From a virus (taxonomy: Duplodnaviria; Caudoviricetes): 64,000 nucleotides of DNA. Positions 16,110-58,038 of this stretch are shown one piece after another. The DNA lies in the IMG/VR virus record IMGVR_UViG_3300029305_004606, positions 96,001-160,000 of that record. One strand, given 5' to 3'. Numbering within the stretch: position 1 is the first letter of the stretch; every line of letters starts with the position of its first letter. The position numbers were made by a program, and so were the translations under genes. Under the pieces are notes generated by a model. That model was not told where the DNA came from, searched no databases, and worked only from the letters and a program-made list of their open reading frames with translations.

Positions 16110-16123
16110 AACATATATGTAAT
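16110..16123 (+). promoter_or_regulatory. Late-type phage promoter (AACA-TATATG-TAAT)
   Basis: Perfect AACA-N6-TAAT. Confidence 0.65.
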
Positions 16124-16266
16124 GCTATCTGGAACAAGGGCGTGCGGACAGTTGGCAGGTGCGATTATTCTTACATATACTAAGTTCTTGACTTTGGTGT
16201 GAACTATGTAACCCCAAGAAGACCCCTAGAGCTTCGGCGGCTCTAGGGGTCTTCGTTTCTTTTTTT
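16121..16266 (+). ncRNA. Candidate small RNA (or near-leaderless 26-aa peptide, 16122-16202)
   Basis: Promoter, GC-elevated body with TTACAT..AGTTC/GAACT-ATGTAA hairpin, then a strong terminator. Confidence 0.45.
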
Positions 16267-16270
16267 ATTT
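16218..16270. terminator. Terminator between convergent units
   Basis: GAAGACCCCTAGAGC/GCTCTAGGGGTCTTC 15-bp stem followed by a T-tract. Confidence 0.85.
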
Positions 16271-16722
16271 TAAGATAAAGTGGATGAATTGAAAGCTGAT
16301 ACTTGATCAACTGCAATTGATTTTACTTTAGAATTGATAAACTTTAATAGATCTTCATCATTAGAAATATTATATATCATTTTAATATAGAAAATATATA
16401 ATTCCGAGATTTCAAGAGCTATAACTTTAGTAATATCTCTTACCATAATCTCACAATCTTCTTCTTTAATATATTCAATCTTTCTAACTATAAACTTCAT
16501 AGAAATATATCTTTGAATATATCTCTCAAAATATTCATCAATATATTGATTGATAGATTCAATCGATAGAACACTGAAAAGATTATATTTTTCGTTTTTG
16601 ATCTTCATTTCTTCCAATTTATTTTTTGGCTCTAAGTAATTCTTAGTAATATAAATTGTACTCCATGTACAGAAAGACAATACTAATATAATTACTATTA
16701 ATAAAAATATATAATTCATCAT
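16270..16722 (-). CDS. Membrane-anchored hypothetical protein
   Basis: N-terminal hydrophobic helix YIFLLIVIILVLSFCTWSTIYI; overlaps upstream gene. Confidence 0.75.
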   Translation of the reverse strand: MMNYIFLLIVIILVLSFCTWSTIYITKNYLEPKNKLEEMKIKNEKYNLFSVLSIESINQYIDEYFERYIQRYISMKFIVRKIEYIKEEDCEIMVRDITKVIALEISELYIFYIKMIYNISNDEDLLKFINSKVKSIAVDQVSAFNSSTLS

Positions 16723-17492
16723 AATAACAATTCTCCATTTCCGTTATTTTCAAGATATCCGTATGCTTGTTTATCAGGTAAATATCCACAATCTGCTACA
16801 GCCCAACCATATTCATTATAGTGAGCAAATCCTAATATTTCTTCTTGATGAGGTAATTGTACACTCAAAGGTAAATTATTCTGATACTTCTTGATATAAT
16901 TTATAACCTTTGCCGCAATGTCGTAAGTTATACCGTATCTATATCTAGATAATAATTCCCACCATCTTCCAAAAGTCATTTCAGGTGGTATATAAGCATT
17001 AGGATCATTAGTATATTTTTGATGAGCAGTCTTGCATAAAAACGTAACACCAACTCTATTTTGTCTATGTTCCTCTATAAGTAATTGTACCAAATCAAAA
17101 GTACTAATAATTCCTATAGTATTTACTACATGAGAAGTTATAAGTAAACAGATATCAAATAATCCTAATACATTATGATGTAATTCTATATCTGCATCTT
17201 CTGTAGTAATATTTCCCATTACTTGACATCTATCTATTCCTAATGATTCTATTAAAAATGCTTTATAAGCTTTATATTCTTTACTAGCTCTAAATCTACT
17301 CTCAGCATTCTTTAAAAAGTTTCTAAATGTATCTACATCAGCTAAAGTTTCCTTAGTCTGGTAAAAGAAAAGGTCTGAAGTAGCATATGGTGAATGAACC
17401 ATAGGATTCTTATCATCATATGTAATTACTTCAGGAAATGTATTATATTCATGATGAACTGGTACTGTAACTAATTCATTCATATTATTCAC
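16719..17492 (-). CDS. HNH-like protein (paralog of 28125-28946)
   Basis: E..FR.S.EY..Y...C...IELHH...LC.T.HQ pattern; preceded by a late-type promoter. Confidence 0.6.
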   Translation of the reverse strand: MNNMNELVTVPVHHEYNTFPEVITYDDKNPMVHSPYATSDLFFYQTKETLADVDTFRNFLKNAESRFRASKEYKAYKAFLIESLGIDRCQVMGNITTEDADIELHHNVLGLFDICLLITSHVVNTIGIISTFDLVQLLIEEHRQNRVGVTFLCKTAHQKYTNDPNAYIPPEMTFGRWWELLSRYRYGITYDIAAKVINYIKKYQNNLPLSVQLPHQEEILGFAHYNEYGWAVADCGYLPDKQAYGYLENNGNGELLL

Positions 17493-17528
17493 CGTCCTTC
17501 TTTGTGAACTTTAAAAGGGTCACTTATT

Positions 17529-17542
17529 ATTAATATAAAGTT
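17529..17542 (-). promoter_or_regulatory. Late-type promoter (AACT-TTATAT-TAAT on minus strand)
   Basis: Motif upstream of the 17492 start; divergent from the promoter at 17558. Confidence 0.6.
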
Positions 17543-17557
17543 TTTCTGCTTATTTTC

Positions 17558-17571
17558 CACATATTATTAAT
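17558..17571 (+). promoter_or_regulatory. Late-type promoter (CACA-TATTAT-TAAT)
   Basis: Motif just upstream of AGGAGGTG RBS. Confidence 0.6.
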
Positions 17572-17592
17572 TTTAAACAGGAGGTGAAAATA

Positions 17593-20500
17593 ATGGCTTA
17601 CGTCAAAAATAAGGCATTTACTGACCATCCTCTAATGGATGAGATTTGCTTTAATTGTAAACGTATTCTGAAAGGTATAGTTGTCAAGAACGATGTATTG
17701 GCTAATCAAAAAGAAACAGAAAAATCAATTGAAAATGCCGAAATGTATTCAGTATACAAACGATACGGAACTATTCCATTTGAAATGTTTCCATTTAATG
17801 AAGACATGTTATATACTTTTGGATATACAAAATATCAAGTTAGAGCAATTCTTCAAGACCGGAACGCTATTCCTAAAGAAGACAGAGAAAAACTTACAGA
17901 ATTTGCTAATCAGTATTTCTTAGATAATTATTTTGAAGCTGATGGTAGATTTAAAGAAGAAAATGATTATTACAGAATGCTTACCGGATTGCCTCCATAT
18001 GAAACTGGTGAGGAATATTATATCTATTTATCACAATCTGATATTCCTAATACTTATGGAAAGAAAGTAGATTTATCTCTTCCACTTCATATGCAGGATA
18101 AACACCTGATTAATGTTTTATATTCTAACGGTGTTATTGATACATTGAGAACTAGATATCGTGGTTCCAATTATTCATACATGCTATATCTTGGTGATAG
18201 AGCTATTGATTTATTCACTGCTAGAAAAGCTAGCAAATGGGATATATTATATATTCCAAACGTAGAAGATCTTGTTAAAGATAAATTTATAGAATTCTAT
18301 CGTGTAAATAGAGATATGTATGCAAACCGTTCTTATCAGGAATTTTATGCTGATACTGGAGAATATTATGATCAGATGATGATTGTCATTGTTCTGGCTC
18401 AAACTTTCAATGACTTAATTGTAGATACTCCTCAGTGGTATATTAGAAGAGATATATTCGATTTAAGATCTTGTCAATACTTCTTAGAATCTAATGGAGT
18501 TGAATTCTTTAAGATTATTCCTTTGAAGTATCAGATTAGAATTGTAAAAAATCTGAATAGATTGATTTCATACAAATCTTCTAATAAGAATGCTATGGAT
18601 ATTTTAGATATCTTTGATATTGATAATACTAAGATATTTAAATATTGGCTATATAAAAAGAAAATTGATAATGTCAATGTTTATGAAGATGATAAGACAT
18701 TTGAAAATGGAGATAATCCTGGAGAAACTGGAGAGAATGATCTCGATTATGATTTTGGATCATTAGAAGAAGGTAAAAGTAAAACTTCTGTTGTTGCAGA
18801 AGGAGATGATTGGGATTTTAATCTTCTTGCTACTTATTCTTTTGATGATATTAAAGGTGTTGAATTTGACGAAAATGATAGAGTTAATTTAGTTGACACT
18901 AAAGATACTGCTATTGGACAATATGAACTTGAATTTATTGCTTCCGAAATTAATGAATCATATGATGATTATATTAAGGAATCTAGGTATAGAACTCCTT
19001 ATGATGATATTACTCTTCAGGATAAATTCTGGGATGGTGATCTTGAACATGAATTTGTAAAGAGCGAGATCTTAAAACAGGATTTCACAATTGTTGGAAC
19101 AAAGTATATGTCACTTGAATATGAAGTAGACTTGGAAAAATTCCAATATCAGATGTCATACTTATTGGGACTGATTATAAATTCTAATCTTGATACTTCT
19201 GATTTGGTAATTGGAGTTCCATCTATTGATGAATTTGCTCACTTTACTATTTCAGATTTGTTCTTATTCTTAATTGCACTTACAAACAACTATAGTGTTA
19301 GAGACGGAAGAAGTGGTTCTGAGACTAGACTATTTGATTTGTGGCAAGGTGTTACTCCAGAGATTGATGAAAAGCTCTATGATTGGAAAAAGAAATATTT
19401 CCCTGAATTTTTCATTAAGAAAGATGGTAGAGTAAATGGATTCAATCCCGATGTTGATATAAATTCTTTAGTGAAGATTCTCGAAAGAAGACATTCTCAT
19501 TATAGATTTGGACACGGTGATACAGAAAATGCTATTCCTCTTGTAGGTGAAGAATATAAAGCTAGAGCTCATGAATGGATTAAAGAACTTGGTGTATTTG
19601 ATTATACTGCTCCTAATTATAAGCTCAAAAGTATCAACGATCTAATCAAAGTTTATCATAGTAATACAAAATGCTATGATATTTTAAAAGAAGCTTTAAA
19701 TAATGCTTCTGATCAGGATGATAAGAAATATATGGAATATATTTTCCAGGAATTGTACACAAGAGATTTTGATATCGATTATTACACAGATCCTGATACA
19801 GGAAGAACTTATGAAAACTTGGTAGATATTATTAAAGATCATAATTATATTCTGTATTCTACTTATCATAAGATTATGCAGGAAACAAATATTGAATCTC
19901 GTCAAGATACTATTAGAGCTGTAATGGATGACGTTATTAGTACTCTTCAATATTATTTATCTGCTGATGGAATGGATTTCTTATTTTCATTTACATCAAA
20001 TGAATCATTCTCATCTATTATCTATTATATTTACTTGATGATTAACTTCTTCAAGTCATATAAAGTATATTTCTTAGATCCATATATCACTTTTAGTTCT
20101 AGTAATAAAAATGAAAACAATGCTAAAGCTATTGATAGAGTTGAAGAATGGAAATATGAATATACTAAATGGGATAGAGCTTTTGTATCAGATGCAATTA
20201 CAGGTATCAGTGTACAGCTTTATATGCCAGATAAATCTATTATAGAATTAACATCTGGTGATGAAGTTGATATTTATGCTCATCATGAACCTAATTTATT
20301 TATGGATTATGATTATGATGGATATACTGAAGATGAATCTATATCAAGAGAAGATGTCAATGGTGGAACTGCTGACGAAACAAAGATTGCTCCGTATATA
20401 ATGATTAACGGTGGTAAGTCTTATCAGAAAAATATAGATCTTTCCAATATTGATGGTGGAGAAGCTAATCAATATGATAGAGATTATTGCGATATTGATG

Positions 20501-21024
20501 GTGGAGAAGCTCTGCATAAAGATGATATCAAAACAGATATGTTTGGTAGTCAGAAATTCAATTATATGATTGATGGTGGATGTGCAGATGGAAGAAGATT
20601 CATCAATAATTTAATAGATTTATATCTGGTTGGGACTCAGTTATTTGGAGATGTTATTATTTCTCCAAGAACTAGATTTATCGAAATTAAAGAAGATGGT
20701 TTATATGTAAACCCTGATAATTTTGCAAGTCCTGCACAGTTTATTAATCTAATAAATACTGTTAACTATTTGGTCGATGAGATTTTGGTAAAAGGTTCTG
20801 AAATTGCAGAGGACCTTAAAGTTATGACAAACATGACTCTGTTTGAAGCTAGAGTAAAGAAATGTGTTAACGAAATTACATATGATATGGAATATGTAAT
20901 TAATAATGTTTTGAATAGCGATAATTACCTTAATGGAATAAAGACTATAATAGATGATATTAATGCAGCTTTGGTTGCAGAATATAAGACAGTAATTAAT
21001 CCTTATGCATGGAAAGAACTTTAG
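17593..21024 (+). CDS. Large virion structural protein, probably baseplate, with C-terminal (D/N)GG repeats
   Basis: AGGAGGTG RBS before ATG 17593; late promoter; repeated INGG/IDGG motifs as in tail/baseplate proteins. Confidence 0.6.
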   Translation: MAYVKNKAFTDHPLMDEICFNCKRILKGIVVKNDVLANQKETEKSIENAEMYSVYKRYGTIPFEMFPFNEDMLYTFGYTKYQVRAILQDRNAIPKEDREKLTEFANQYFLDNYFEADGRFKEENDYYRMLTGLPPYETGEEYYIYLSQSDIPNTYGKKVDLSLPLHMQDKHLINVLYSNGVIDTLRTRYRGSNYSYMLYLGDRAIDLFTARKASKWDILYIPNVEDLVKDKFIEFYRVNRDMYANRSYQEFYADTGEYYDQMMIVIVLAQTFNDLIVDTPQWYIRRDIFDLRSCQYFLESNGVEFFKIIPLKYQIRIVKNLNRLISYKSSNKNAMDILDIFDIDNTKIFKYWLYKKKIDNVNVYEDDKTFENGDNPGETGENDLDYDFGSLEEGKSKTSVVAEGDDWDFNLLATYSFDDIKGVEFDENDRVNLVDTKDTAIGQYELEFIASEINESYDDYIKESRYRTPYDDITLQDKFWDGDLEHEFVKSEILKQDFTIVGTKYMSLEYEVDLEKFQYQMSYLLGLIINSNLDTSDLVIGVPSIDEFAHFTISDLFLFLIALTNNYSVRDGRSGSETRLFDLWQGVTPEIDEKLYDWKKKYFPEFFIKKDGRVNGFNPDVDINSLVKILERRHSHYRFGHGDTENAIPLVGEEYKARAHEWIKELGVFDYTAPNYKLKSINDLIKVYHSNTKCYDILKEALNNASDQDDKKYMEYIFQELYTRDFDIDYYTDPDTGRTYENLVDIIKDHNYILYSTYHKIMQETNIESRQDTIRAVMDDVISTLQYYLSADGMDFLFSFTSNESFSSIIYYIYLMINFFKSYKVYFLDPYITFSSSNKNENNAKAIDRVEEWKYEYTKWDRAFVSDAITGISVQLYMPDKSIIELTSGDEVDIYAHHEPNLFMDYDYDGYTEDESISREDVNGGTADETKIAPYIMINGGKSYQKNIDLSNIDGGEANQYDRDYCDIDGGEALHKDDIKTDMFGSQKFNYMIDGGCADGRRFINNLIDLYLVGTQLFGDVIISPRTRFIEIKEDGLYVNPDNFASPAQFINLINTVNYLVDEILVKGSEIAEDLKVMTNMTLFEARVKKCVNEITYDMEYVINNVLNSDNYLNGIKTIIDDINAALVAEYKTVINPYAWKEL

Positions 21025-21042
21025 AATGGAGGAAATATTAAA

Positions 21043-21918
21043 ATGGTTAAAACAATCATGGCTTCAGAAGATGCTCGTGTTAAAAGAGAAGAATCCAGTT
21101 TAACTATTGAAGATAGACTTAAGGCTGGTCCTAAGAGAACAAAAGTAACTTTAATCAATCATGATACTGGTGAAACATTAGGTGTATATGAAAATAAGTT
21201 GACTATTTCTGGTTCTCAGTATAATGCTATGAGAGCATTTGGTCTTCAGGTAGCTGGTGTAGAATTTCCTAGCTACAATGATGAAATGAAATTAGATAAT
21301 ACAACTACAGCTGCACCTAAGAATGAGAAAATTGTATGTCTCTTCTGTGTATCTGATACTGGTTGTGGATCTACTCCTAAAGATGTAAAGGTTGCTTCTT
21401 ATACAGATAGAATCAATCCTGCACCTGAAAATCCTGCAAATGTGAGAGAATTTGATAGTAGCATGATTATGCCTTTCAGATTTGTAGATAAAAATAAAGA
21501 TCTTAATGATGATCTTAGAAAGTATTATTTTGGTCGTAAGACTTTTAATATTCTTAATAAGATTGGTTATTACTTTAAGACTTTCGATACAGAACCTCAG
21601 CTTTATGTAAGATATGCTGATGGTACTCCTATTACTCCGGAAATGTATAATGTACATTCTGAACAAACAGCTGAATGTTTCATTCAGACAAGATTGAGAA
21701 TTACAACTCTCGATTTTAGAGATTATTTTGAGCAGGTTCTTGGATGGGATAAGGCTAGAATTAGTTCTCTTTCTTTATGTTATGCTTGGCATGATGATAC
21801 TATTGATAAGTATAGATATTATCAGGACATTACTCCTTATTCTATCTTATATTTCTCTTATCAGTGGTTGGTAGATGCTAATGTAGCAATTGATGTACTT
21901 TACGACATTTACTATTAA
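21043..21918 (+). CDS. Probable virion structural (baseplate/tail) protein
   Basis: Co-transcribed with the preceding structural gene; GGAGG RBS; call rests on context. Confidence 0.5.
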   Translation: MVKTIMASEDARVKREESSLTIEDRLKAGPKRTKVTLINHDTGETLGVYENKLTISGSQYNAMRAFGLQVAGVEFPSYNDEMKLDNTTTAAPKNEKIVCLFCVSDTGCGSTPKDVKVASYTDRINPAPENPANVREFDSSMIMPFRFVDKNKDLNDDLRKYYFGRKTFNILNKIGYYFKTFDTEPQLYVRYADGTPITPEMYNVHSEQTAECFIQTRLRITTLDFRDYFEQVLGWDKARISSLSLCYAWHDDTIDKYRYYQDITPYSILYFSYQWLVDANVAIDVLYDIYY

Positions 21919-21923
21919 AATAT

Positions 21924-21960
21924 AGAGACCGAGGTTGTTCTATAACCTCGGTCTTTAATT
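21924..21960 (+). terminator. Stem-loop / weak terminator
   Basis: AGACCGAGGTT/AACCTCGGTCT stem followed by TTAATT. Confidence 0.55.
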
Positions 21961-21984
21961 ATACAAAGAAGGGAGCTATATAGT

Positions 21985-23295
21985 ATGGCTAGAGTATCTA
22001 AAAACTGGGGTTCGCCTAGTCCTAATTATAAAGATATTGGATTTGATCCTAAAAATCTTAACTCTAAAACTCTCGTAGATATGATGTGTAATTTGAAACA
22101 GGAACATATTACTTCATCTTTAGTAATGAAATTATTTGGTTCATTTAAAGGAAAGAAGTTATGTAATCATTATGATACTTTTACAGTACCTGTTGGGTGT
22201 TATTCTTTTGAGAACGATAAAGGTAAAGTTGTATCTAACAAAACACCTTTTGTTACTACATTTGGCATCTGGATTTTTAATATTTTTATGATTTCAGGTT
22301 TAGGTATGGCAAAAATTGTTGGTGGATATATTAACGAAAACCTTACAAAAAAGAGTTTTAATAAAATTCATCAGCAAATTCTCAATGCTTTGATTGAAGA
22401 TAAGATTGATGTTGTTTCATATAAGAAATTTATTACTAATATCGATTTTATTATGCCTTGGGAAACTTTCTTATCTCCTGCACAATCAGAAAAACTTTTA
22501 TCTTGTACAAAAGAAATTGGTAAAATGAAAGCCAGATTAATTAAAGAAAATAAGGCTGCAGTTGATGCCGGTGATCCTGTTGTTGTAGAACAAATTGAAA
22601 AAAAGTTGTTAGATTTTGCTCTTGAATATCTTAAAGATGATCCTGCATTAGATGGATATCTTTCTGGTGCTGGTGGATCAATTGGCAATAACTTCAAAAA
22701 CATGTATGTTATGAAAGGTGTAGTTAGAGATCCCGATCCCAATACATCAAAAGAATATAATTGTGCTGTATCATCTTTCATTGATGGTATTGCTCCTGAA
22801 GAATATTCTTTATTGGCAAATTCATTGTCAGGCGGTCCTTATTCTCGTGCTAAGAAGACCGAATTAGGCGGATATTGGGAAAAGCTTATTGAAGCTGCAG
22901 AAAACACAGTAGTATTGGCTGGTAAAGGTACAGACTGTAAATCAGATAAGTATATTGAAACAGTTTTAACTGATGATTTGGTAGGTTCTTTCATGTACAG
23001 TTATGTCTTAAAAAGCGATGGTAATTTGGAAGAATTAAATTCTGAAACTATAGACAAATATAGAAATAAGAAAATTAAAGCAAGATCTACTTTATTCTGT
23101 AAAGAATATGCTAAGACTGGACATGTATGTAACATGTGTGCAGGAAACTTCTTTTATAGAAGAGGAAGTGAAAATATTGGACTTGCATGTTCTCAAATTA
23201 GTACCAAGTTAAAGCTTGTTTCAATGAAGGCTTTCCATGATTCTACTGTTAATACTACAGAAATGGATGTAATGAAAGCTTTTGGATTAAAGTAA
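21985..23295 (+). CDS. rpoC: Multisubunit RNA polymerase beta'-like subunit, split fragment (F-loop, bridge helix, Zn site, trigger-loop start)
   Basis: SGAGGS, SSFIDGIAPEEY, KKTELGGYWEK (bridge helix), DC..RSTLFC..VCNMCAG (Zn), NIGLA..SMKAFH (cf. TMRTFH); no DxDGD motif in this piece. Confidence 0.88.
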   Translation: MARVSKNWGSPSPNYKDIGFDPKNLNSKTLVDMMCNLKQEHITSSLVMKLFGSFKGKKLCNHYDTFTVPVGCYSFENDKGKVVSNKTPFVTTFGIWIFNIFMISGLGMAKIVGGYINENLTKKSFNKIHQQILNALIEDKIDVVSYKKFITNIDFIMPWETFLSPAQSEKLLSCTKEIGKMKARLIKENKAAVDAGDPVVVEQIEKKLLDFALEYLKDDPALDGYLSGAGGSIGNNFKNMYVMKGVVRDPDPNTSKEYNCAVSSFIDGIAPEEYSLLANSLSGGPYSRAKKTELGGYWEKLIEAAENTVVLAGKGTDCKSDKYIETVLTDDLVGSFMYSYVLKSDGNLEELNSETIDKYRNKKIKARSTLFCKEYAKTGHVCNMCAGNFFYRRGSENIGLACSQISTKLKLVSMKAFHDSTVNTTEMDVMKAFGLK

Positions 23296-23300
23296 ATAAT

Positions 23301-23673: not shown

Positions 23674-23686
23674 ATTATATATTATA
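23674..23686 (+). promoter_or_regulatory. Early-type promoter (ATTATATATTATA)
   Basis: Exact motif; followed by an ORF-less region and a terminator. Confidence 0.65.
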
Positions 23687-23689
23687 ATA

Positions 23690-23848
23690 CTGATACATAA
23701 GAGATTCTTTTGATTTACATATGATTTTATTCATAAATACATAGGATATTATATAATATCAAAATCTAGTTAATTGTTTTAAATAAACTTATATAAAACA
23801 CTAGATAGGTCCTGGGCGAAAGCCCAGGACTACTTTATTTATTTTTTG
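23690..23848 (+). ncRNA. Candidate early small RNA
   Basis: Early promoter, no RBS or ORF, ATCTAG..TGTTTT/AAAACA-CTAGAT hairpin, GAAA-tetraloop terminator. Confidence 0.4.
23809..23848 (+). terminator. Intrinsic terminator with GAAA tetraloop
   Basis: GTCCTGGGC-GAAA-GCCCAGGAC followed by a T-rich tract. Confidence 0.85.
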
Positions 23849-25212: not shown

Positions 25213-25472
25213 TGACTATGGTAAAAACAGAAATTCATGGAGCAATTGTAGACAAATTTGTTATCAGACCTATCAATGGTCCTAGTGATTCTATTGTTAT
25301 GGAATCAATTGGTGATAAGAAAGAACCTGCAGTTTTTAATACTGAAGAGGATGTACAAAAGTATTTAGATTTTATGGATATTGACCAGGAAGAAAGAGCT
25401 AATATAAAGATAGATTGTACTAATATTAGTTATTTCAATAACGGTGGTATTTTGGTAGAATTTGAAGAGTAA
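25212..25472 (+). CDS. Small hypothetical protein
   Basis: AAGGAGG RBS, TAATG stop/start coupling. Confidence 0.75.
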   Translation: MTMVKTEIHGAIVDKFVIRPINGPSDSIVMESIGDKKEPAVFNTEEDVQKYLDFMDIDQEERANIKIDCTNISYFNNGGILVEFEE

Positions 25473-25500
25473 GTTTCAATCTACCTTGATACATAAATAT

Positions 25501-25660
25501 AACGGTGGATAGTACTCATGAAAATTTGTGCTAAGGCTCCCCGGCTGATGTATACAAATTCCATTGACAAAAATTAAATAAAATACCATAATAGTGCAAA
25601 CAGTTTTAGCAGAGTGATTTCCACCGTTGTCACTCTGCTAGAGCTAATATTTTATTTTTT
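25501..25660 (+). ncRNA. Candidate structured small RNA
   Basis: TACA-N6-TAAC promoter at 25490-25503; 5' AACGGTGGA complementary to TCCACCGTT in the loop of the 3' terminator hairpin (25607-25640); internal AATTTGTG/TACAAATT hairpin with CTCCCC loop. Confidence 0.55.
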
Positions 25661-25692
25661 ATAAAAACATTGCTTATAAAGTTTTACATTTA

Positions 25693-25730
25693 CTAGTAGA
25701 CTTTATCGTCTACTAGAGTTTTTATTTTGT
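25693..25730 (+). terminator. Intrinsic terminator
   Basis: CTAGTAGAC/GTCTACTAG stem followed by a T-tract. Confidence 0.65.
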
Positions 25731-25751
25731 TTTATATATAGCGATTTTTCG

Positions 25752-25765
25752 AACTTTATATTAAT
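25752..25765 (+). promoter_or_regulatory. Late-type promoter (AACT-TTATAT-TAAT)
   Basis: Motif upstream of the metalloprotease gene. Confidence 0.6.
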
Positions 25766-25803
25766 ATCAGTGACTAATTTAATTAGTCGGAAGGAGAGTA
25801 ATT

Positions 25804-30304: not shown

Positions 30305-30332
30305 TAAATTAATACAACCAGAACAGTTCAGT

Positions 30333-30680
30333 AGAATAGAGGGGCGGGGGCAGGGAGAGAGTAGGAATAAAAGGGTCTATTTTATATTAACTATATTTTT
30401 ATAAAAGATAAAGTATTAGTTTAAATTCTATTTAAAATATTAGAATTTTAGGTAAGCAAAAAGTTAAAATTAAAAAACTTTTTGCTTATAAACAATGTGA
30501 TAGAGAATACCCTCTCGGGAGGGGAGTTCCTCCCCTCCCTGGCGGGACGCCACCCCTCCCCTAATATAAGTGCCCGCCATAATAATAGACCCGTACTTTG
30601 TACGAATTTTTTCTTAATATAGTTTATTTTTTGAGATTTGTCCCCTATAGGTTTATAGCCTATAGGGGTTATTTTTCTTT
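30333..30680 (+). ncRNA. Candidate large structured ncRNA (or structured replication origin)
   Basis: AACA-N6-TA promoter at 30322; G-tract at the 5' end; at least six nested helices; terminator at 30642-30680; no ORF. Confidence 0.55.
30642..30680 (+). terminator. Intrinsic terminator
   Basis: CCCCTATAGG/CCTATAGGGG stem followed by TTATTTTTCTTT. Confidence 0.8.
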
Positions 30681-30895: not shown

Positions 30896-30927
30896 TTATT
30901 TCTATCAAAAGAAAAGGAGGTGAAAGC

Positions 30928-50600: not shown

Positions 50601-53600
50601 TTACAGATACTATATTAGATGCTTGTATTAAATTTACAAGTATGCTTGGCAAAATTCCTGCATTAAAAGGTATTGCTGGTAAGATTGATGATATGGGTCT
50701 CGAACTTGCTGAAAAGATTTCAACTAAACTTGCATCATCTGGAGCAAAATCATTACTTAGTAATGCTGCTAATTTTGTTGTATGGGCTAAAATTGCATTT
50801 ATTGTAGTAGACTTTACAACAGGTTATGAGGATGCTAGAACTACACTTGGTATTATAGATGAACCTACAGTTCCTCAGAAAATTATTGCAGGTTTATTAC
50901 GTGCATTAAAGAATTTAATTCCTGTAGTTGGTTCGTTAATTCCTGATAGTTTAGTAATAGATGTATTCTGTAAGTATATTGCTCCATTCTTTGGTATTGA
51001 ACCTGAAGGTTTAATGAAACAGAGAGAAGAAGCAGAAGCAAAAGTTGCAGAGTATAATGCTGCTAACGGTACAAACTATTCTGTAGGTGAGTATAATAAG
51101 GCTGTATTGCATGATTATACTTGGACAGAAAGAATCGGAAATGCTGCAAAATCTACTGTAAACGATGTTAAAGATAAATGGAATGCTGGTGTAACTGCTA
51201 TTAAAGAAAAAGGTTTAGGAGGAGCTATCAAAGATGGAATCTCTAATAACGTTGATATCTTTAAAGAAGCATTCAAAGGTAAAGATGGAGGTCTTGCTGG
51301 AGTTACTTCTGGTATAGGTGCTGTATTAGGAAATCTTTTACCTGGTGTCTTTGGAGAAGTTGCACAAAAGAACACTGAAATTCAAGCTCTTGCTTATAAG
51401 GGTGAGATTGGTGAAATGTGGAAAGTTGCTTTAAGTGACTTCAGTAAAGGTAGTGATGAGGAAGCAAATGTTGGTATATTTAGTAAAATTATCGGACAGA
51501 TTCCTTTATTATTTACCAAGATTAATATGACACCTTTAGCTTTAATCAATAAGGTTATTAGACCTATTATGGATAAAGCTGGAGATGCTTTTAAGGGTAT
51601 CATCGAAGGTGGAAAATATATTGCTACTCTTCCTGCTACTGTAGCTGCTGACACTAAAGCACTTGTATACAGTAAAGAAGATACAGATTTGAAGGATTTC
51701 TTCAATGTATCTAAGTATGAACAGCAAGGTGAAAATGGTTTCTATAATGGTATTATTAAGGCGGTCGCAATGACTAGCCGTGTAGCAAGTTTAGGAACTA
51801 TGATAGTTGGTGCTGTAGGTAAGAGAATTGGAAAAGCTTTTGTTGAAATTAAGGATAAAGTAGTAAACATGGGCAAGGCATTTATTAGCCTTGATACAGG
51901 TATTACAAGGAAAGCGTTAGAAGGTGACGTATCTAACATGTTCTCCTATGTATCTTCTTCTACTTCAGAAGATGCCAATAATCCTCTTGGATTTATTGGT
52001 AAAGTATATGGATATACTACTGCAGCCTTAAGAACTCCTCTTGCTTTAGTTTCTAAGGCAGGTAAAGCTATTGGTAAATTCTTAGTTGAAACAAAAGATA
52101 AAGTTATTACCATGGGTCAAGCTTTTGTAGCATTAGACTCTGGTATCACTAGAAATGCTTTAGCAGGTGATATTGGTGGTATGTTTAACCATGTATCTTC
52201 TTCTACTTCAGAGGATGCCAATAATCCTCTTGGATTCGTTGGTAAGGTGTATGGCTATGTAAATGCTGCTATGAAAACTCCTCTTGCTTTAGTTTCTAAG
52301 GCAGGTAAAGCTATTGGTGGATGGTTGACAAGTGTCAAAGATAAAGTAGTTACTGCTTTCTCTACTATGGCTACGATGGATCAAAGTATTACTGCAAAAG
52401 CTACAGCAGGTGATATAACTGGAATGTTTGACTATGTAGCTGGAGCTACATCAGAAGATGCCGAAAATCCTCTTGGATTTGTAGGTAAAGTATACGGTTA
52501 TGTAAACGCTGCTGGTAAAGTTCCTCTTGCTTTATTATCTAAAGCAGGTCAAGCTATCGGTGGATGGTTTGGTGAAAAAGTAGATGCGTTTAAGACAGAC
52601 GTTGGAACATTAGATTCTGCAAAAGAAGCTCTCAAGGGTATGAGTCAAGATAAATCTAGTTCTATTGGAGATATCATGGGCTATACAACAGAGTTTAGTG
52701 ATAATAATGTATTCAAGGGAATTTTTAACGCTATTTTCGGATTCCAAAAGATTTTCTATAGTGCTGCTAAACTTCTCGGAAATGTATTTGATGCAATCAG
52801 TGGAGTTGTAGATGGTATTAAAGATAAAGTCGGTGGAGTTGTAGATGCTGTTACTGAGAAAGTGTCTGGTGTTAAAGATGCTGTAGTTGAGAAAGTAGAA
52901 GATGTAAAAGAAGGAGCTAAGAAAGTTGTTAATAATGTTAAAGAAGGTGCCAAGAAAGCAGGAGAAACTGTCAAAGGATGGGGAGAAGCTGCTTGGGATG
53001 GTTTAACAGGATGGATAACTGGATCTGGTTCTGGATTTGTTTCTCAATATGATCCTAGATATCAGAATTATAAAGTATCTGGACAGAACTTTGCTGCTAA
53101 GGGTTGCGGTCCTGCTGTAGCTGCTATGGCTGGTAGAGCTCTTGGTAAGAATATTTCTGTTAATGATGCTGTAAATGGTTCTATTGGATATCAGAATGGT
53201 AACGGTGTATCTATTGATTACTTCCAGCAAATGCTTGGTTCTAAGGGAATCAATACTAGATATATTAGTGGTGGTTCTTCTGCTGATTTATATAACTCTA
53301 TTGCTAGTGGTGAGAAGGTTGTATTACTTGGTAGAGATCCTTATAATACTTCTAAAGAATATTCTCCTTTTGGACCTAACAATCATTATGTATTAGCTAC
53401 TGGTATCGATAGAAGAGGAAATGTTATTATTAACGATCCCGAAGCTAGAGGACCTAGAGCTTATAATCCTGCTATTTTGAATTCTGCTAAGTTTGGTGTA
53501 GCTGGTTCTAATAGTGGAATTGGAAGAAGAAGTTCTATTAGAAGATCCTCTAAAGTAAGAAATATTTTCTCAGGCGGATCTTCATATGATACAGAAATTG

Positions 53601-55369
53601 CTAAGCAAGTTTGGGCATTCTTTATTAATAAGGGATACTCTCCTGAATGTACTGCTGGTATTATGGGTAACATGTATGCTGAATCTGCAATGAATCCTAA
53701 AGCTATTCAAAACAATGGCAAAGGACCTGCTGCAGGTATTTGTCAGTGGGAAAACTATAATACTCAGTCTGGTAGATGGAGAAATCTTTACGAATATGCT
53801 AAAGGTAATAATAAAGCTTGGACAGATCTCGATATACAGTTAAGATTTATTCACCATGAGTTACAGTCCAAGGATATTGATAATAGATTATCTGGTAAAA
53901 CTGCATCTAGCAATATTACTAAGACTGGTCTTAATATCAGTAAAGCTATGCCTTATGCACAGTGGAAAGTATGTACAGATATTCCTACTGCTTGTTGCTT
54001 GTTCGAAGCTGCTTTTGAGCGTGCTGGAGTTGTAGCAATGGAGAAGAGAATAAATGCTGCTACTGCTTACTACAATTTATATTCTGGAAAGAGTTATAGT
54101 TATGATGGGTCTATCGGATCTGCTTCTTATACAAGTGATCCTAGTACATCTAGCTCTGATTCTTCTAATAATCCTGGATTATTCAGTAATATCTGGAATG
54201 TTGTTGGAGATATAGGAACTGCATTTTCTAATGCATTCGGAAAAGTCTTCAATAAGAATGATAAATCTGATAATCAGGAAAGACAAGTATATGGTAATAA
54301 TAGTACTGGTTCTAGTAAAGCATTAATAGCTACAGGAACTGCTCCTACAGGAGATATGGCAAATAACTTCCCTTACTTTGGTCAAGGTGAAGCTCCTTGG
54401 GCTACTGAATCTTATGGACAAGGAACTATTAAGTCATCTGGATGTGGTCCTACATCTATGGCTATGGTTGCTAAATCATATGGAATCAACACTGATCCTG
54501 ACAGATTAGCAGATTGGTCTGTAGATAATGGACATAGAATTCCTAATCAAGGTACAAGTTGGGCATTCTTCCCAGCTGCAGCTAAAGAATTAGGATTAAC
54601 GGCTGATCAATTCTCTTCTCCTGCAAAAGCTAAAGAATATCTGAATAATGGAGTACCTATAATCGGATCTATGATGCCTGGTGATTTTACCAAAGGTGGT
54701 CATTATATTGTATTCAGTGGCTTAAAGGGTGATAGAGTATATGTTAACGACCCTGCTTCTAGAAAGAGAACTGGTAATGTTTGGAATGTAGATTCTGCAT
54801 TTAGTCAGGCTAAACAGTTCTGGGCTATTTCTAATAATGGTGTAGGTTCTATTGATAATTCTAAATTATCTGCTGCAGGTTCAGGCTTAGTAAGCTATGA
54901 AGACCTTGCAAATATGTCTGGTGGTTCTTCTGGTATATTAATGAAAGCTAGACCTGGTTCTAGAAATAATATGCCTGCAAGATTATCTAACGGAAGATTA
55001 GTTCCTGTATCTAGTTTCTCTGGTGGAGCTACCACAGATGTAATGACTACTCAAACACAAGCAATGCTTACTAATATTAGTAAGAATGCAAGTAAATCTA
55101 ATAGTGGTATAAGTCCTGAACTTGTAACTAAGTTGCTCACTTCTATTACTCAGATCTTGCAGAATATTGCTAATAATACTGCTCCTGTAGGTAAGATTTA
55201 CCAGGCACTTCTGGCTTATGTACAGGCTGGTGGAGATTCAGGTATCAAGAATGATACTCCAACTCCTATCAAAGTCGATAAGACTAAGAATAACCAAACA
55301 CCTGAACCTGAGATCGATTCAAGTATCGCAAATCTTGTAGGTGTTCTTGCAGAACTTGCAAAGGGTTAA
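44693..55369 (+). CDS. Tape measure protein with C-terminal C39-like peptidase / phage tail lysozyme / C39-like peptidase domains
   Basis: 3558 aa, Ala/Gly/Lys-rich; HARG..VSEGELVIP motif; Gly-zipper hydrophobic stretches; GCGP..HYV..NDP twice; AGIMGNMYAES..GICQW (Phage_lysozyme2-like). Confidence 0.85.
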   Translation: MATTNSKSKTYLKNVGKSFGYAAMDVFEHYNPTLTNLYKSSKDAVTEAKRLSREAKMQLQQAEVDSDKGGMSYILEDLASGKWYNKERQTEDERYLSTIAKEEDWGDDTTASAVADTARDVMKQNEASTRKISDSLGGAAQSISTSIGYASAQSADYIVKSFGAQSRALYGLTANGFDRVTNVLLSINNSIDGIASMGEGLNAHMKNSSIFYINATQSLNRIDTNIEKLVKMQEAANRSPRGISRKNVKGMENLIDSDGNIDLVAYMKMVKDNMDQYKTLAEALKDKKEDWIGNRKGGNMLSNTVVSVVDAMIPKMTKEAMKIMNETLRDGLIAGLARGGMKARRSNNPVANLLGEMFLPKDGYKDKLDTSNYEKGQVAWDGIARKSLVEVIPTYLAKIYAALGGEEKYFDYETGKFVKLEQIKADHEYDKRVSAVRAGGKMRTDILADIRKNAPAQRQAQLENEVESFFLQAFVDGYDFVEIAHMINDANFRRKYGITRESAKYIIDYVGAKDATKARRATGFVAGVARGRNEFGNTMRRREAAGTSNLVYASHGFDGGPAGNAINQFATMTDSFGKTQAYYLRGIYMMTGNIYGALQGQVGGSYRVRPDRRATASTYFNPDTGRYSRRRPRMTGGERSNMDNRQQRQAASTTTRNRNISIEDRAKYYGMSDDQILEAKRREEMVKRAQQAFNGQEFTPIQGTSEDGQPRVRSRFGSALAKVKDWYQAPFAAMTDMINSFTLGINNMFWGTKERKGLIDKISDYMKSLWTKVFGDENGQGGIGMQAAMKEEWTKIKTKVKDKARNFMGNVGARDRAAGQREIAQAVANQFSGTQEVPAHARGRRITKTGLIAVSEGELVIPSEFNPYYHGRTNKRQQIRNEQRIINKFYGGFATGGTVGGAYTDGQFVEDVDPITGEKIYKFVKPDGTVIRLKKSEYAKRLAQWKIKQTTQAIDDNTGAITAAKDGVNLLGSGLMDFIKASLFGTDKQQEEDKKKINMKMTDIFKEMGHEKGAMGIGAIGGLGVSLLTGAVVGPLAGAALGAGVGLLAKSEKVQKMLFGEVDENGNYEKEFGNFVMKKLPNIGVTAGLGLAGGALLGSPIIGLIAGSAIGFAGQSDAVKDRLFGKLDENGERSKGGLINKELRDKIKKAAPNIAAGGIAGLLVGPFGLAGNLIVGSAIGYLSTGEKFHQYFFGDGKDDKGLAGIIHEKIIKGLDDLIHNTGNALKGWMRKTGAKVGSKIMSFISKAQNKYETGKASGLTKAIGWAASVPGKALKGATNKVGDLVQGLAGHRRARNLAEGYDVWNAEAGRNATAAERLGMRSDDDISSAANMDRAIAGADAEQLAQLKNMLTDLRDPKLAFQKVKDKSTATLYSELMDAGITDKKLIKKIIKEAGSTNSTIRLEDLITGYSEDQQKAIRKAFNKSDKEIQAAKDTKTVTKGNLALLKDKFGINLEGSSNADIVNYLKAIEHDEKIRFGEDGSDLNAKEEKYQDNVVTLLTDMNNNISLFTEYITGKRNAAGRFDGNIDKEGNAHFWVHGDRAVSAEEAIAGARGQRDIMEFGRDTKNAIAETTTKVIDTVTEPIKDAVVGTFDFVKEKVVTPLSDTVKAVAHTAQDLYGIGIRGFNAANPDIDTSNYYGPTSGIDVVNTAQRTATRASYLGGRLKRGAGDVIKAIRGKAEGGTISGDNTFLDMLADKVIEKVGGIGDYLKGKMESAKEKITTHVDAFGNVHKMTTNNQGETVAATNDSTTKKSKAAMDKFMNSVNSIPGMATAMSGLSSMFGGLKDKLLGGDEEKGPGLLEQLVNGLFDDTDGFIPNIINLITGGQGGGKFGGITLKSIFTNLIGPGLLAAGFAGVFDNAFKAATGGAYGKKDNEEYYDKETGQVVQKTADGQYTDANGNIVSGNIGVRQNDVASFSDKLKENTARGVLTNTSSVASKVLGNTNIGKTISAAGRTVVKAVGGDAAAMASITDTILDACIKFTSMLGKIPALKGIAGKIDDMGLELAEKISTKLASSGAKSLLSNAANFVVWAKIAFIVVDFTTGYEDARTTLGIIDEPTVPQKIIAGLLRALKNLIPVVGSLIPDSLVIDVFCKYIAPFFGIEPEGLMKQREEAEAKVAEYNAANGTNYSVGEYNKAVLHDYTWTERIGNAAKSTVNDVKDKWNAGVTAIKEKGLGGAIKDGISNNVDIFKEAFKGKDGGLAGVTSGIGAVLGNLLPGVFGEVAQKNTEIQALAYKGEIGEMWKVALSDFSKGSDEEANVGIFSKIIGQIPLLFTKINMTPLALINKVIRPIMDKAGDAFKGIIEGGKYIATLPATVAADTKALVYSKEDTDLKDFFNVSKYEQQGENGFYNGIIKAVAMTSRVASLGTMIVGAVGKRIGKAFVEIKDKVVNMGKAFISLDTGITRKALEGDVSNMFSYVSSSTSEDANNPLGFIGKVYGYTTAALRTPLALVSKAGKAIGKFLVETKDKVITMGQAFVALDSGITRNALAGDIGGMFNHVSSSTSEDANNPLGFVGKVYGYVNAAMKTPLALVSKAGKAIGGWLTSVKDKVVTAFSTMATMDQSITAKATAGDITGMFDYVAGATSEDAENPLGFVGKVYGYVNAAGKVPLALLSKAGQAIGGWFGEKVDAFKTDVGTLDSAKEALKGMSQDKSSSIGDIMGYTTEFSDNNVFKGIFNAIFGFQKIFYSAAKLLGNVFDAISGVVDGIKDKVGGVVDAVTEKVSGVKDAVVEKVEDVKEGAKKVVNNVKEGAKKAGETVKGWGEAAWDGLTGWITGSGSGFVSQYDPRYQNYKVSGQNFAAKGCGPAVAAMAGRALGKNISVNDAVNGSIGYQNGNGVSIDYFQQMLGSKGINTRYISGGSSADLYNSIASGEKVVLLGRDPYNTSKEYSPFGPNNHYVLATGIDRRGNVIINDPEARGPRAYNPAILNSAKFGVAGSNSGIGRRSSIRRSSKVRNIFSGGSSYDTEIAKQVWAFFINKGYSPECTAGIMGNMYAESAMNPKAIQNNGKGPAAGICQWENYNTQSGRWRNLYEYAKGNNKAWTDLDIQLRFIHHELQSKDIDNRLSGKTASSNITKTGLNISKAMPYAQWKVCTDIPTACCLFEAAFERAGVVAMEKRINAATAYYNLYSGKSYSYDGSIGSASYTSDPSTSSSDSSNNPGLFSNIWNVVGDIGTAFSNAFGKVFNKNDKSDNQERQVYGNNSTGSSKALIATGTAPTGDMANNFPYFGQGEAPWATESYGQGTIKSSGCGPTSMAMVAKSYGINTDPDRLADWSVDNGHRIPNQGTSWAFFPAAAKELGLTADQFSSPAKAKEYLNNGVPIIGSMMPGDFTKGGHYIVFSGLKGDRVYVNDPASRKRTGNVWNVDSAFSQAKQFWAISNNGVGSIDNSKLSAAGSGLVSYEDLANMSGGSSGILMKARPGSRNNMPARLSNGRLVPVSSFSGGATTDVMTTQTQAMLTNISKNASKSNSGISPELVTKLLTSITQILQNIANNTAPVGKIYQALLAYVQAGGDSGIKNDTPTPIKVDKTKNNQTPEPEIDSSIANLVGVLAELAKG
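51851..52579 (+). repeat. Three tandem 243-nt (81-aa) repeats in the tape measure gene
   Basis: KDKV...TSEDA.NPLGF.GKVYGY...PLAL.SKAG.AIG starts at 51851, 52094 and 52337. Confidence 0.85.
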
Positions 55370-55377
55370 AATACAAG

Positions 55378-55413
55378 TAAGTTGGAGATAGTGTAACAAC
55401 TATCTCCAACTTA
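55378..55413. other. Intergenic stem-loop overlapping a late-type promoter (AACT-TATGAA-TAAA, 55408-55421)
   Basis: TAAGTTGGAGATAG/CTATCTCCAACTTA 14-bp inverted repeat. Confidence 0.6.
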
Positions 55414-55446
55414 TGAATAAAAATAAAGAGAAAGGTGGAACAAGTT

Positions 55447-56910
55447 ATGCCATCACAATTAAGCAATTATCTAACAGATGAAGAATTGGAAGCTTATATT
55501 ACTGGTAATGACGAATCTAATGTAGACCAGACAATATCAAAGATTATGACTACCAGAACTAATGGTATAGAAGGTTTACCTTATCAGTTTATGGAATCTG
55601 TTGATCGTAGAGTTGTTACAGAAACAGAAACAACTGATGTTGGAAGAAAGTATGGTGAAAGGATATTCTCCAGATTACCTCTTTTATTCTTGACTCCTTG
55701 TGAGCCACTGTTTATGGACGAGTTTACTAGAACTGAAAGAAGAAGTGTAGTTGGTAATCTTCTTGGAAATCTTTCTGGAGACGCTTTACAAACTCTCAAT
55801 TCTTCTGGAAGATATTATACTATAGACTTCAACTACGTTGAATACTATAAGTATTTGAATACAATGCTATCTGCTCTTTCTGTATATCTTGAATATAACG
55901 GAGATAGCTTATACAATACAAAAATTAAAATTGGAGATCAGGAACCAAAAAGAATAGGTACTATTGACTGGTCAAAGGAATTGAATAGTGATTTTAAGAC
56001 TTTCTTCTCCGCTCAAGAAAATGTAGTATTCTATTTAGACGGATTAACTTCCATTTCAGAAAGTTTTGGAAATGATACCACTGAATCATCTCTAGCATCT
56101 CAGATTAATGGTTTCTCGGACACTGCTAGAGAAATTCGATATTTGTTCGGTTCTAGAGGAAATGCTGCTGCTGAATTGGTCAATTCTGGTGCAAGTATAA
56201 CAAGTAGTATTACAGAAAGTATGTCTGGAGCACTTACAAATGTATTTGGTGGTATTGTAGGTTCTATTTCAAACAATGGTGTTAATACACTATTGAATGG
56301 TGGAAAAATTATATTCCCTGAAATGTGGTCTAACTCTAGTTTTGATAAGTCTTATACAATAGATATCAAACTTAGATCTCCTGATCATGATAATTTAAGT
56401 ATCTTTTTGAATGTCTTGAAACCTTATTGTAAAATTCTTGCATTAGTTATGCCAAGACAAACAATATCAGATAGTTCTGGTGACCCTAATGGATATTCTG
56501 CTCCTTTCCTAGTAAAGGCATATTGTAAGGGAATGTTTAATATTGACATGGGAATCATTAGTTCTCTTTCTGTTACAAAAGGTGCTGAATGTTGTTGGAA
56601 TGATGATGGTTTACCTACACAGATTGATATTAGTATTGAGATCAAAGATATGTATAAACATCTTGCTATGTCAACACTTGATATTACACATCCAATTCAG
56701 TCTGCAAGGAATATTGTAAATAATACTGCTTATATGGATTTCTTAGCTAATATGGCTGGATTAAATATAGGTCAGATGGAAGTTGGTAGACGAATTACAA
56801 TGTTATATTATTTGTCACAAAACTATGTATCAAGATCATCTTCCTCTGTATTCCGTAAGTTTGATCAGGGTGTAACAAAATTGATAGGTAAAATGTACAG
56901 AAGTATATAA
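55447..56910 (+). CDS. Probable baseplate hub / tail-tube-initiator-like structural protein
   Basis: Follows the tape measure gene; IFPE.W..S.F.KSY...KLRSP...P.L....G....SLSV......GLPT.I.ISI pattern resembles T4 gp48/54-like tube-fold proteins. Confidence 0.55.
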   Translation: MPSQLSNYLTDEELEAYITGNDESNVDQTISKIMTTRTNGIEGLPYQFMESVDRRVVTETETTDVGRKYGERIFSRLPLLFLTPCEPLFMDEFTRTERRSVVGNLLGNLSGDALQTLNSSGRYYTIDFNYVEYYKYLNTMLSALSVYLEYNGDSLYNTKIKIGDQEPKRIGTIDWSKELNSDFKTFFSAQENVVFYLDGLTSISESFGNDTTESSLASQINGFSDTAREIRYLFGSRGNAAAELVNSGASITSSITESMSGALTNVFGGIVGSISNNGVNTLLNGGKIIFPEMWSNSSFDKSYTIDIKLRSPDHDNLSIFLNVLKPYCKILALVMPRQTISDSSGDPNGYSAPFLVKAYCKGMFNIDMGIISSLSVTKGAECCWNDDGLPTQIDISIEIKDMYKHLAMSTLDITHPIQSARNIVNNTAYMDFLANMAGLNIGQMEVGRRITMLYYLSQNYVSRSSSSVFRKFDQGVTKLIGKMYRSI

Positions 56911-56918
56911 AATGATTT

Positions 56919-56952
56919 AAGAGATACCCTATTATAAGGGTATCTCTTTTAT
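56919..56952 (+). terminator. Intrinsic terminator
   Basis: AAGAGATACCCT/AGGGTATCTCTT stem followed by T's. Confidence 0.75.
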
Positions 56953-57041
56953 TGTATATCATTAGATTTAGTAAAAAATAACAAAAAAAGTAACGGTTTA
57001 ATAATTACTAAACTTACTTTTGGTAGAAAGTGAGGTAAAGT

Positions 57042-57527
57042 ATGGATTATAATAATATTATAGTACCAATTTCATTTGATCCGTCTCTAATTGGTCATAA
57101 TTTTATAATGATAGATGTACCAGGAGAACCTTTTGCTAAGCAGCGACCGAGAGCAGCTAAGAAGGGTAGATATATAACAATATATACTCCTAGAGAGACG
57201 AAACAATATGAAGAAAAAGTAAGAAAAGTTTATAATGCTATGTATGGAAGTTACCAATTAGAGGGTGACTTAACTGCTGAAATAGAAGGAACTTTTTCTA
57301 TTCCTAATTCTGTTTCCAAAAAGAAACGTCAAGAAATGATAGAAGGTAAAGTTCCACATACTAAAAAACCCGATTGTGATAATATGGGTAAAATTTGTTT
57401 GGACGCATTAAATGAAGTAGCCTATCCTGATGATGCAGCAATAAACAAATTATGGATTTCTAAAGAATATGGAGATATTGCTAAAGTGAGAATCACTATA
57501 ATAGAAAATAAAATGATATCAGAATAG
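57042..57527 (+). CDS. rusA: RusA-family Holliday junction resolvase
   Basis: VPGEPFAKQRPR...YTP..T..YE...KKPDCDNMGK..LDALNEVAYPDDA; AACG-N6-TAAT promoter at 56992-57005. Confidence 0.92.
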   Translation: MDYNNIIVPISFDPSLIGHNFIMIDVPGEPFAKQRPRAAKKGRYITIYTPRETKQYEEKVRKVYNAMYGSYQLEGDLTAEIEGTFSIPNSVSKKKRQEMIEGKVPHTKKPDCDNMGKICLDALNEVAYPDDAAINKLWISKEYGDIAKVRITIIENKMISE

Positions 57528-57541
57528 GAGACTGAATAACT

Positions 57542-57916
57542 ATGGATATGAGTAAATATTATGAATATAGGCAAAAAATTAGAGCACTGTATGATCAGGA
57601 GCCGTTTAGTAGTAATGATCTTGGAAGTAAAATTCTTGAGATTAAAGATAAAAATAGGTGTATTGTATCTATGTCTTTAGATCTAAATGCTTATTACATC
57701 CAGGCTCAGTTTGAAGATGGAACACCGTTTGAGAAAGTTAATAAAATTTGCGATTCAATTCTTAAAAGAATTGGATATTATTTATCAGATAATATCGATT
57801 CTATTCCTGATCTTGAACCGGAAGATAAAGATGCGATTAGATCGATGTTAAATAATCCTGCAGCTACATATTGTGATCATATTGTGATTGGAAACATGGT
57901 TAAAATTAACCTGTAA
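57542..57916 (+). CDS. Hypothetical protein
   Basis: 124-aa ORF, AGGAG RBS. Confidence 0.75.
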   Translation: MDMSKYYEYRQKIRALYDQEPFSSNDLGSKILEIKDKNRCIVSMSLDLNAYYIQAQFEDGTPFEKVNKICDSILKRIGYYLSDNIDSIPDLEPEDKDAIRSMLNNPAATYCDHIVIGNMVKINL

Positions 57917-57929
57917 CAAACATAAATAT

Positions 57930-58038
57930 AATGAGTCGGATTGGACACCCGATCTCATAGCTTTTGGATAAAGCTAAAGTTGACATCACCTCAAAGCAGA
58001 ACCCCTAAGGCATTGCTGCCTTAGGGGTTTTGTATTTT
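57930..58038 (+). ncRNA. Candidate small RNA with exposed anti-Shine-Dalgarno-like ATCACCTC
   Basis: Perfect AACA-TAAATA-TAAT promoter (57919-57932); two hairpins; unpaired linker; terminator. Confidence 0.55.
57997..58038. terminator. Terminator between convergent units
   Basis: CAGAACCCCTAAGGC/GCCTTAGGGGTTTTG stem. Confidence 0.85.

Follow-up and report, generated by a model that had tools for sequence, protein, structure and literature searches.

Three conserved promoter-to-terminator units as candidate late noncoding RNA genes in an uncultivated jumbo phage

Intergenic units with a putative late promoter and a strong terminator were analyzed in a 64,000-nucleotide (nt) stretch of phage DNA (the window), which comprises bases 96001-160000 of a 200,990-bp virus record with 31% GC; unit coordinates follow the numbering of the window. 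Three of these, referred to as units 1, 3, and 4, begin with the motif AACA-N6-TA, continue through hairpins, and end at a terminator, and no open reading frame (ORF) on either strand of any unit is conserved among relatives. The motif and parts of the predicted structures are kept across genomes, with covarying base pairs, and the phage encodes a homologue of gp226, a promoter-recognizing subunit of phage RNA polymerase (RNAP). We consider it fairly probable that the three units are unrelated, single-copy genes for late noncoding RNAs (ncRNAs), each with its own A-11ACA-N6-TA+1 promoter and a terminator shared with the upstream mRNA, and that unit 4 acts by base-pairing.

A sequence-only reading of the same DNA had described four units of one architecture and proposed that they form a repertoire of small RNAs (sRNAs) directed against ribosome-binding sites. 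The architecture of motif, hairpins, and terminator without a conserved ORF is indeed found in units 1, 3, and 4, but unit 2 lacks the AACA motif. What stands of the repertoire is three units that behave as discrete, conserved, noncoding promoter-to-terminator genes. They do not make one family, as nhmmer profiles of units 1, 3, and 4 found their own orthologues only, with no cross-matches and no paralogues, and by sequence they would be three unrelated single-copy families.

Promoter motif and conservation among relatives

The phage appears to belong to an uncultivated clade of AR9/phiR1-37-like jumbo phages. Its proteins are only distantly related to those of Fusobacterium JD-Fnp phages and Yersinia phiR1-37 (23-31% identity), and a near-identity search with 16 kb against 50,697 phage records gave no match. 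Relatives were obtained as syntenic loci (L-numbered) from Logan and ENA assemblies, picked at graded identity via homologues of the neighboring 1143-aa, 495-aa, and 463-aa proteins. Unit 1 was compared in 8 genomes (59-88% identity of the 1143-aa protein), unit 3 in 4 genomes (3 of full length), and unit 4 in 4 genomes. The IMG/VR relative G001 spans none of units 1-3, and an IMG/VR profile search with a 192-aa neighbor protein found none. Rfam 15, including 6S, RsaE, ROOL, and GOLLD, had no match at the gathering threshold in the whole window, and permissive Rfam scans of units 1, 3, and 4 returned only sub-threshold, terminator-driven matches. Transfer RNA and transfer-messenger RNA genes were looked for, and none were found.

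In phage AR9, the late-promoter consensus is 5′-A(-11)ACA-N6-T(A/G)(+1), where the last base is the transcription start, and it is recognized by the gp226 subunit of the non-virion RNAP (PMC7598289). Units 1, 3, and 4 match this consensus exactly. A gp226 homologue is encoded at genome positions 187940-189181, as a match to AR9 g226 (L059:9415-10809) with an E value of 3.3e-18 and 26% identity over 395 residues. The motif AACA-N6-TA also lies 25-70 nt upstream of 17-18 genes, including a virion RNAP beta-like gene and the gene of a 1499-aa lysin, and its copy before the 495-aa gene, which served as a positive control for a gene-proximal promoter, is conserved in four relatives. Because the AR9 consensus, the gp226 homologue, the position before genes, and the conserved control copy agree, it is reasonable to take AACA-N6-TA as a putative late promoter here.

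In units 1, 3, and 4, a + strand gene precedes the motif, which is located 17, 18, and 3 nt, respectively, past the stop codon of that gene. The non-virion RNAP probably transcribes the units late, from a promoter that directly follows the preceding late gene, and each RNA would end at an intrinsic terminator common to the mRNA of that gene, which is the layout of an sRNA embedded in a 3′ untranslated region (UTR) yet equipped with a promoter of its own. No hairpins in the 201-kb genome are more stable than the terminators of units 1 and 4 (-31.2 and -29.9 kcal/mol). The fold z-scores of the units, -3.7 to -7.6, are mostly owed to their terminators. Incidentally, many terminator stems throughout the genome share a CCCTAGAGG / CCTCTAGGG-like core, which points to shared ancestry of these stems or to a sequence that the phage polymerase prefers when terminating.

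When the pattern was compared with shuffled intergenic DNA, the check that the sequence-only reading had itself set, it came out near background. Intergenic AACA motif matches numbered 34 against 24.0±4.8 in dinucleotide shuffles, and ORF-free motif-to-terminator units numbered 10 (7 loci) against 5.3±2.2, with a maximum of 12, for 60 control motifs, so that the bare motif and the architecture stand about 2 standard deviations over background. These statistics weigh against reading the units as ncRNA genes, and so do several other observations. The relatives make up one narrow clade, and covariation rests on 3-8 sequences. The more distant L001 has no unit 4 but just a terminator spacer of 40 nt, and unit 1 is not present at the syntenic spot in relatives whose homologue of a 277-aa neighbor is 27-39% identical. 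The two conserved patches of unit 1 found no target better than shuffled seeds find, and the target pairing of unit 4 has its own limits, which are given with it below. On the other hand, the surrounding spacer DNA has a mean column identity of 52-57%, while the promoters of units 1, 3, and 4 do not vary among the genomes compared (8/8, 4/4, and 4/4). The units are taken as real because of this cross-genome conservation, not because of motif statistics.

The near-background statistics also favor an explanation without any discrete functional RNA, by which the units would be 3′-UTR and terminator structures of the upstream genes, stabilizing mRNA or insulating convergent transcription, with a chance or accessory AACA, or else gene scars. 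No terminator separates any unit from its upstream gene, so each unit is also the 3′ UTR of that gene, and scars do occur, as at 23674-23848, where the early promoter of a comparable unit has a real gene behind it in L007 and L009. However, every relative keeps the promoter unchanged, as is also the case for the gene-proximal control promoter, and internal unpaired motifs are kept while the hairpins around them covary, which a stabilizer or a scar would not need. We regard this explanation as very unlikely.

Other promoter-like elements were noticed along the genome. A third motif class, (T/A)ACTTTATATTAAT, lies 37-67 nt before five genes (window 25751 and 17543 (-); genome 6763, 181565, and 195947 (-)), and its copy at window 25751 is kept in relatives. 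The unit at window 23674-23848 has an invariant AT-rich motif, TTATATATTATAAT, likely an early promoter, followed by ~140 nt without an ORF and by a terminator, which shows covariation in L003, L004, and L008. As the TTATATATTATAAT promoter drives a gene directly in L007 and L009, the unit may either be left over from a lost gene or encode an early sRNA. Outside the window, 15.5 kb before its start, genome positions 80357-80463 (-) hold a AAACATTAATATAAT promoter, ~106 nt, and then a terminator of -21.9 kcal/mol; this orphan unit cannot be a UTR of its neighbors, because it is antisense between two + strand genes.

Unit 4 and its candidate target

Unit 4 is the sole unit with a conserved unpaired seed that resembles an anti-Shine-Dalgarno (anti-SD) sequence. 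Its promoter AACA-TAAATA-TA (57919..57930; + strand, as are all unit features given below) follows the stop codon of a 124-aa gene, with a predicted start at A57930. The predicted RNA of about 105 nt (57930..58038) has two hairpins (about 57932-57976), the 13-nt seed UUGACAUCACCUC (57980-57992), and the terminator (57993-58036). The promoter sequence AAACATAnATnTAATGAG is kept in L021 and L022, and L023 has AACA-TAACGA-TA at the same place, so that AACA-N6-TA is found in 4/4 genomes.

The seed, mostly unpaired, is also present in 4/4 genomes, as UUGACAU(U)C(A/G)CCUC, differing by one A to G change that is compatible with a G.U pair and by one 1-nt insertion. Hairpin 1 of L022 differs by a double change that is compensatory. 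The two hairpins of L023 are wholly different in sequence, but the layout is the same and the seed is retained. A 26-codon ORF on the minus strand is broken in L021 and L022.

Pairing of the 13-nt seed was evaluated against 203 start regions of the phage. The best one belongs to a conserved 63-aa gene (9138-9329), with -17.7 kcal/mol for predicted pairing to its SD-to-AUG region GAGGTGAATGTCAATG (9131..9146, + strand). This energy was reached by 2 of 250 shuffled seeds, giving an empirical p of about 0.008, which is weakened by the trial of about four seeds. Complementarity between seed and target holds in relatives with a virion protein at 77-88% identity and weakens in those at 75-76% or lower. 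The seed and target of L023/L061, the one matched pair that lies on a single contig, reach -16.9 kcal/mol and do not co-vary cleanly. Most likely, unit 4 would base-pair with a specific mRNA across its SD and AUG, with the 63-aa gene as the best phage candidate; we infer this target from complementarity, and it is a candidate only. The gene encodes a conserved protein of 61-63 aa, probably a coiled coil, and judging from the relatives, the ATG at 9144 is likely to be the true start.

Start regions in general are not preferred by the seed. Its mean energy over them is -6.67 against -6.38±0.82 for shuffled seeds, and sites at ≤-10 kcal/mol number 21 against 12.6±10. Pairing between units 1 and 4 was considered by inspection and dropped, as it amounts to just 5 bp (AGGUG/CACCU).

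Units 1 and 3, and the rejected unit 2

Unit 1 starts from AACA-TATATG-TA (16110..16121), which fits the AR9 late consensus, with a predicted RNA start at A16121. The predicted RNA of about 135-145 nt (16121..16266) contains hairpin 1 (16123-16157), a G-rich, SD-like conserved motif CAGGUGCGAUUAUU (16156-16169), hairpin 2 with the stem AGUUC/GAACU (16183-87 / 16201-05), the C patch ACCCC (16211-16215), and a terminator with a U-run (16216-16256). Even where the neighboring 1143-aa protein has fallen to 59% identity, AACAT..A..TAAT is unchanged (8/8 genomes), and CAGGTGCGATTATT is nearly invariant in the same set. The spacer between the convergent genes measures 148-249 nt throughout the relatives.

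RNAalifold recovered the 5′ hairpin and the terminator of unit 1, in which 13 of 21 pairs are changed on both sides with pairing kept. Hairpin 2 recurs in relatives as UGUUC...GAACA, where the closing pair is U-A instead of the A-U of the window. The ACCCC patch is kept in 6/8 genomes with a probability of being unpaired of 0.5-0.94 (0.82 at 16211-16215), and the corresponding value of the G-rich motif is 0.2-0.6. Thus, the sequence-only claim of a C-rich unpaired patch holds for unit 1 and, loosely, for unit 4 (UCACCUC), but the most conserved unpaired motif of unit 1 is the G-rich CAGGUGCGAUUAUU, not the C-rich one. Unit 1 would follow the same general layout as unit 4, with two conserved patches, G-rich and C-rich, that are partly unpaired.

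A conserved TAATG places an AUG 1 nt after the predicted transcription start, and units 1 and 4 might accordingly encode leaderless micropeptides. The RNA opens with AAUG in 7/8 sequences of unit 1 and 3/4 of unit 4, and the unit 1 frame has 26 codons in the window. That frame, however, carries a frameshift in L003, ends after 8 codons in L004, and has no AUG in L009; in unit 4, the frame spans 9 codons, differs in length among genomes, and is missing from L023. The micropeptide idea is largely refuted, and we give it hardly any credence.

Unit 3 is predicted to start at A30333 from AACA-GTTCAG-TA (30322..30333) and to yield an RNA of about 280-350 nt (30333..30680). A 5′ G-tract (30341-30365) is followed by variable AT-rich hairpins, a GC hairpin (30517-30539), a further hairpin (30540-30552), a C-tract (30553-30562), and two terminators, weak (30592-30612) and strong (30639-30671). 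The promoter AACAGTTCAnTAGA is invariant in 4/4 genomes, and the G-tract with GGGAGAGAGTnGGAATAAA is nearly so. In a 76% relative, the GC hairpin is wholly replaced with pairing retained (GGGAGGGGAG/CTCCCCTCCC vs GGGGGGAAGG/CCTTCCCCCC). A second AACA promoter at 30491 is present in the window and lost in relatives.

The C-tract CCCCUCCCC of unit 3 is internally paired with the 5′ G-tract, contrary to the claim of an unpaired patch, and this pairing is kept in all 3 full sequences. Another helix, GGGTCTATT/AATAGACCC, crosses it, in place of which L024 has an 11-bp AT helix; the crossing suggests a pseudoknot or alternative folds. With no accessible seed, unit 3 differs from what is expected of a base-pairing sRNA, and as a larger, GC-rich, structured RNA it more likely would bind protein or have a structural role. 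For unit 3, a distant search against phage records gave one 33-nt chance match and nothing else, and scans of IMG/VR and JGI metagenomes with its motif pattern gave unrelated chance matches only.

Such a role could extend to all units, which would then be protein-binding, decoy, or structural RNAs (for RNAP, ribosomes, or a nuclease) rather than base-pairing regulators, with unit 3 as a possible G-rich R-loop primer of replication. The size, GC content, long-range helices, and possible pseudoknot of unit 3 speak for this, as do the conserved motifs of unit 1 without a significant mRNA complement. Still, neither 6S nor another Rfam family was matched, and the conserved element of unit 4 is a short unpaired linker, typical of a seed. 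A replication origin at unit 3 gained no support from GC skew, whose cumulative minimum lies at genome position 18.9 kb and unit 3 at 126 kb. Altogether, we think it unlikely that none of the units is a base-pairing regulator.

Downstream of unit 3, a ~55-nt element, GAAAAATGTAAAAGT...TATAATATAAT..GAATAAAGATA, was noticed. It has three copies, at window 30692 and 30841 and at genome 56840, and the first two form a tandem that separates unit 3 from a small SD-led ORF, which starts near 30926.

Unit 2 (flagged span 25501-25660) lies in a variable intergenic insert (25473..25803) with two terminators. Its + strand has no AACA-N6-T[AG], and the sequence there is AACG-GTGGAT-AG. The unit is kept solely in an 88% relative; it is absent in L004/L024, which have a 136-nt spacer, and replaced in L008. 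The missing motif, together with this loss and replacement, ruled out its membership. The region does contain a sigma-70-like TTGACA-17-CATAAT (25564-25592) and the ACTTTATATTAAT promoter-like motif of the downstream gene (25751). As a separate observation, AACGGTGGA (25489-25509), on the 5′ side of unit 2, is an exact complement of TCCACCGTT (25619-25628) in the loop of the 25606-25640 hairpin, and a third copy of the element is at 25441. This complementarity might serve to switch the downstream 439-aa gene in cis, although it is lineage-specific.

With all the units described, the proposal of a coordinated late repertoire can be weighed, in which C-rich single strands would block SD sites and shut off early-phage or host translation globally. 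The unpaired and conserved AUCACCUC of unit 4 is identical to an 8-nt stretch in the usual 3′ tail of 16S rRNA, and the ACCCC patch of unit 1 is mostly unpaired and semi-conserved. C-runs are in fact scarce elsewhere, as the sequence-only reading had noted: 17.3 kb of intergenic DNA contains 13 C/G runs of at least 4 outside terminator stems, and 8 of them cluster within units 1-3. A general role against ribosome-binding sites, nevertheless, was not borne out, because the unit 4 seed has no preference among the 203 start regions, the C-tracts of unit 3 are paired, and the best-kept motif of unit 1 is G-rich; moreover, unit 2 is no unit, and the RNAs have no sequence in common. A global SD block would also harm the phage itself, because its own late genes use strong GGAGG sites (87 of the 203 start regions). 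We find the global shut-off quite unlikely.

A more selective form can be conceived, in which unit 4 displays a mimic of the 16S anti-SD tail and, with units 1 and 3, reprograms late translation by masking selected phage or host SD sites or by competing with ribosomes. This is a doubtful proposition, about as improbable as the global shut-off. If true, RNAs encoded by the phage would add a level of control over translation that has yet to be described for jumbo phages with an RNAP of their own.

Comparison with known RNA systems

The late units of the PBS1-like phage AR9 are comparable in that the present phage has the same promoter consensus, a gp226 homologue, and the motif before structural genes too. 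They differ in that the present phage is distant, at the protein identities to JD-Fnp and phiR1-37 given above, and its promoters are predicted from sequence. AR9 late promoters also drive antisense (non-mRNA) transcripts (PMC5312081). A term search of that study, which reports antisense RNAs, found no mention of small or non-coding RNAs (PMC5312081).

Among jumbo and other virulent phages, ncRNAs of phiKZ (from Grad-seq and ONT-cappable-seq) and ncRNA1/2 of PAK_P3 are phage-encoded, often late-accumulating, UTR-associated, and conserved in the genus, with function unknown (PMC10914365, PMC8244752). The units resemble these Pseudomonas phage candidates in being phage-encoded, UTR-associated, and conserved in a clade. 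The Pseudomonas phage ncRNAs, however, are mostly products of premature termination in 5′ UTRs or of 3′-UTR processing that were found by RNA-seq, whereas the present units are sequence-predicted and have their own conserved promoter. No sequence similarity to the units was found in the 50,697 phage records. The units thus appear to be new families within a known kind, the ncRNA candidates of virulent and jumbo phages.

In layout, the units can be set beside bacterial sRNAs embedded in 3′ UTRs. Those of the DapZ/MicL type are enterobacterial, depend on Hfq, and are transcribed from sigma-factor promoters. The likeness consists in a promoter at the end of the upstream ORF, a shared terminator, and a short conserved seed just before the terminator. 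The difference is that the DapZ/MicL type is bacterial, with Hfq and sigma-factor promoters, and there is no homology to the units.

In their motifs, RNAs of the RsaE/RoxS and RNAIII type in Bacillota are closer, having C-rich seeds and repeated UCCC loops. The unpaired C-rich or anti-SD-like motifs of units 4 and 1 are likewise proposed to pair with SD regions, but each RNA here has one motif and no Rfam match. The predicted pairing of the unit 4 seed, unlike that of a generic anti-SD, reaches the spacer and the AUG of one gene.

Very little is known of what sRNAs do in virulent phages, and for jumbo phages the candidates stem from RNA-seq on a small number of Pseudomonas phages. To these, the present analysis adds three sequence-defined, conserved candidate RNA genes with a recognizable phage-polymerase promoter, one of them with a concrete seed and target pair, and it extends the late-promoter logic of AR9, AACA-N6-TA with a gp226 homologue, to a distant, uncultivated clade.

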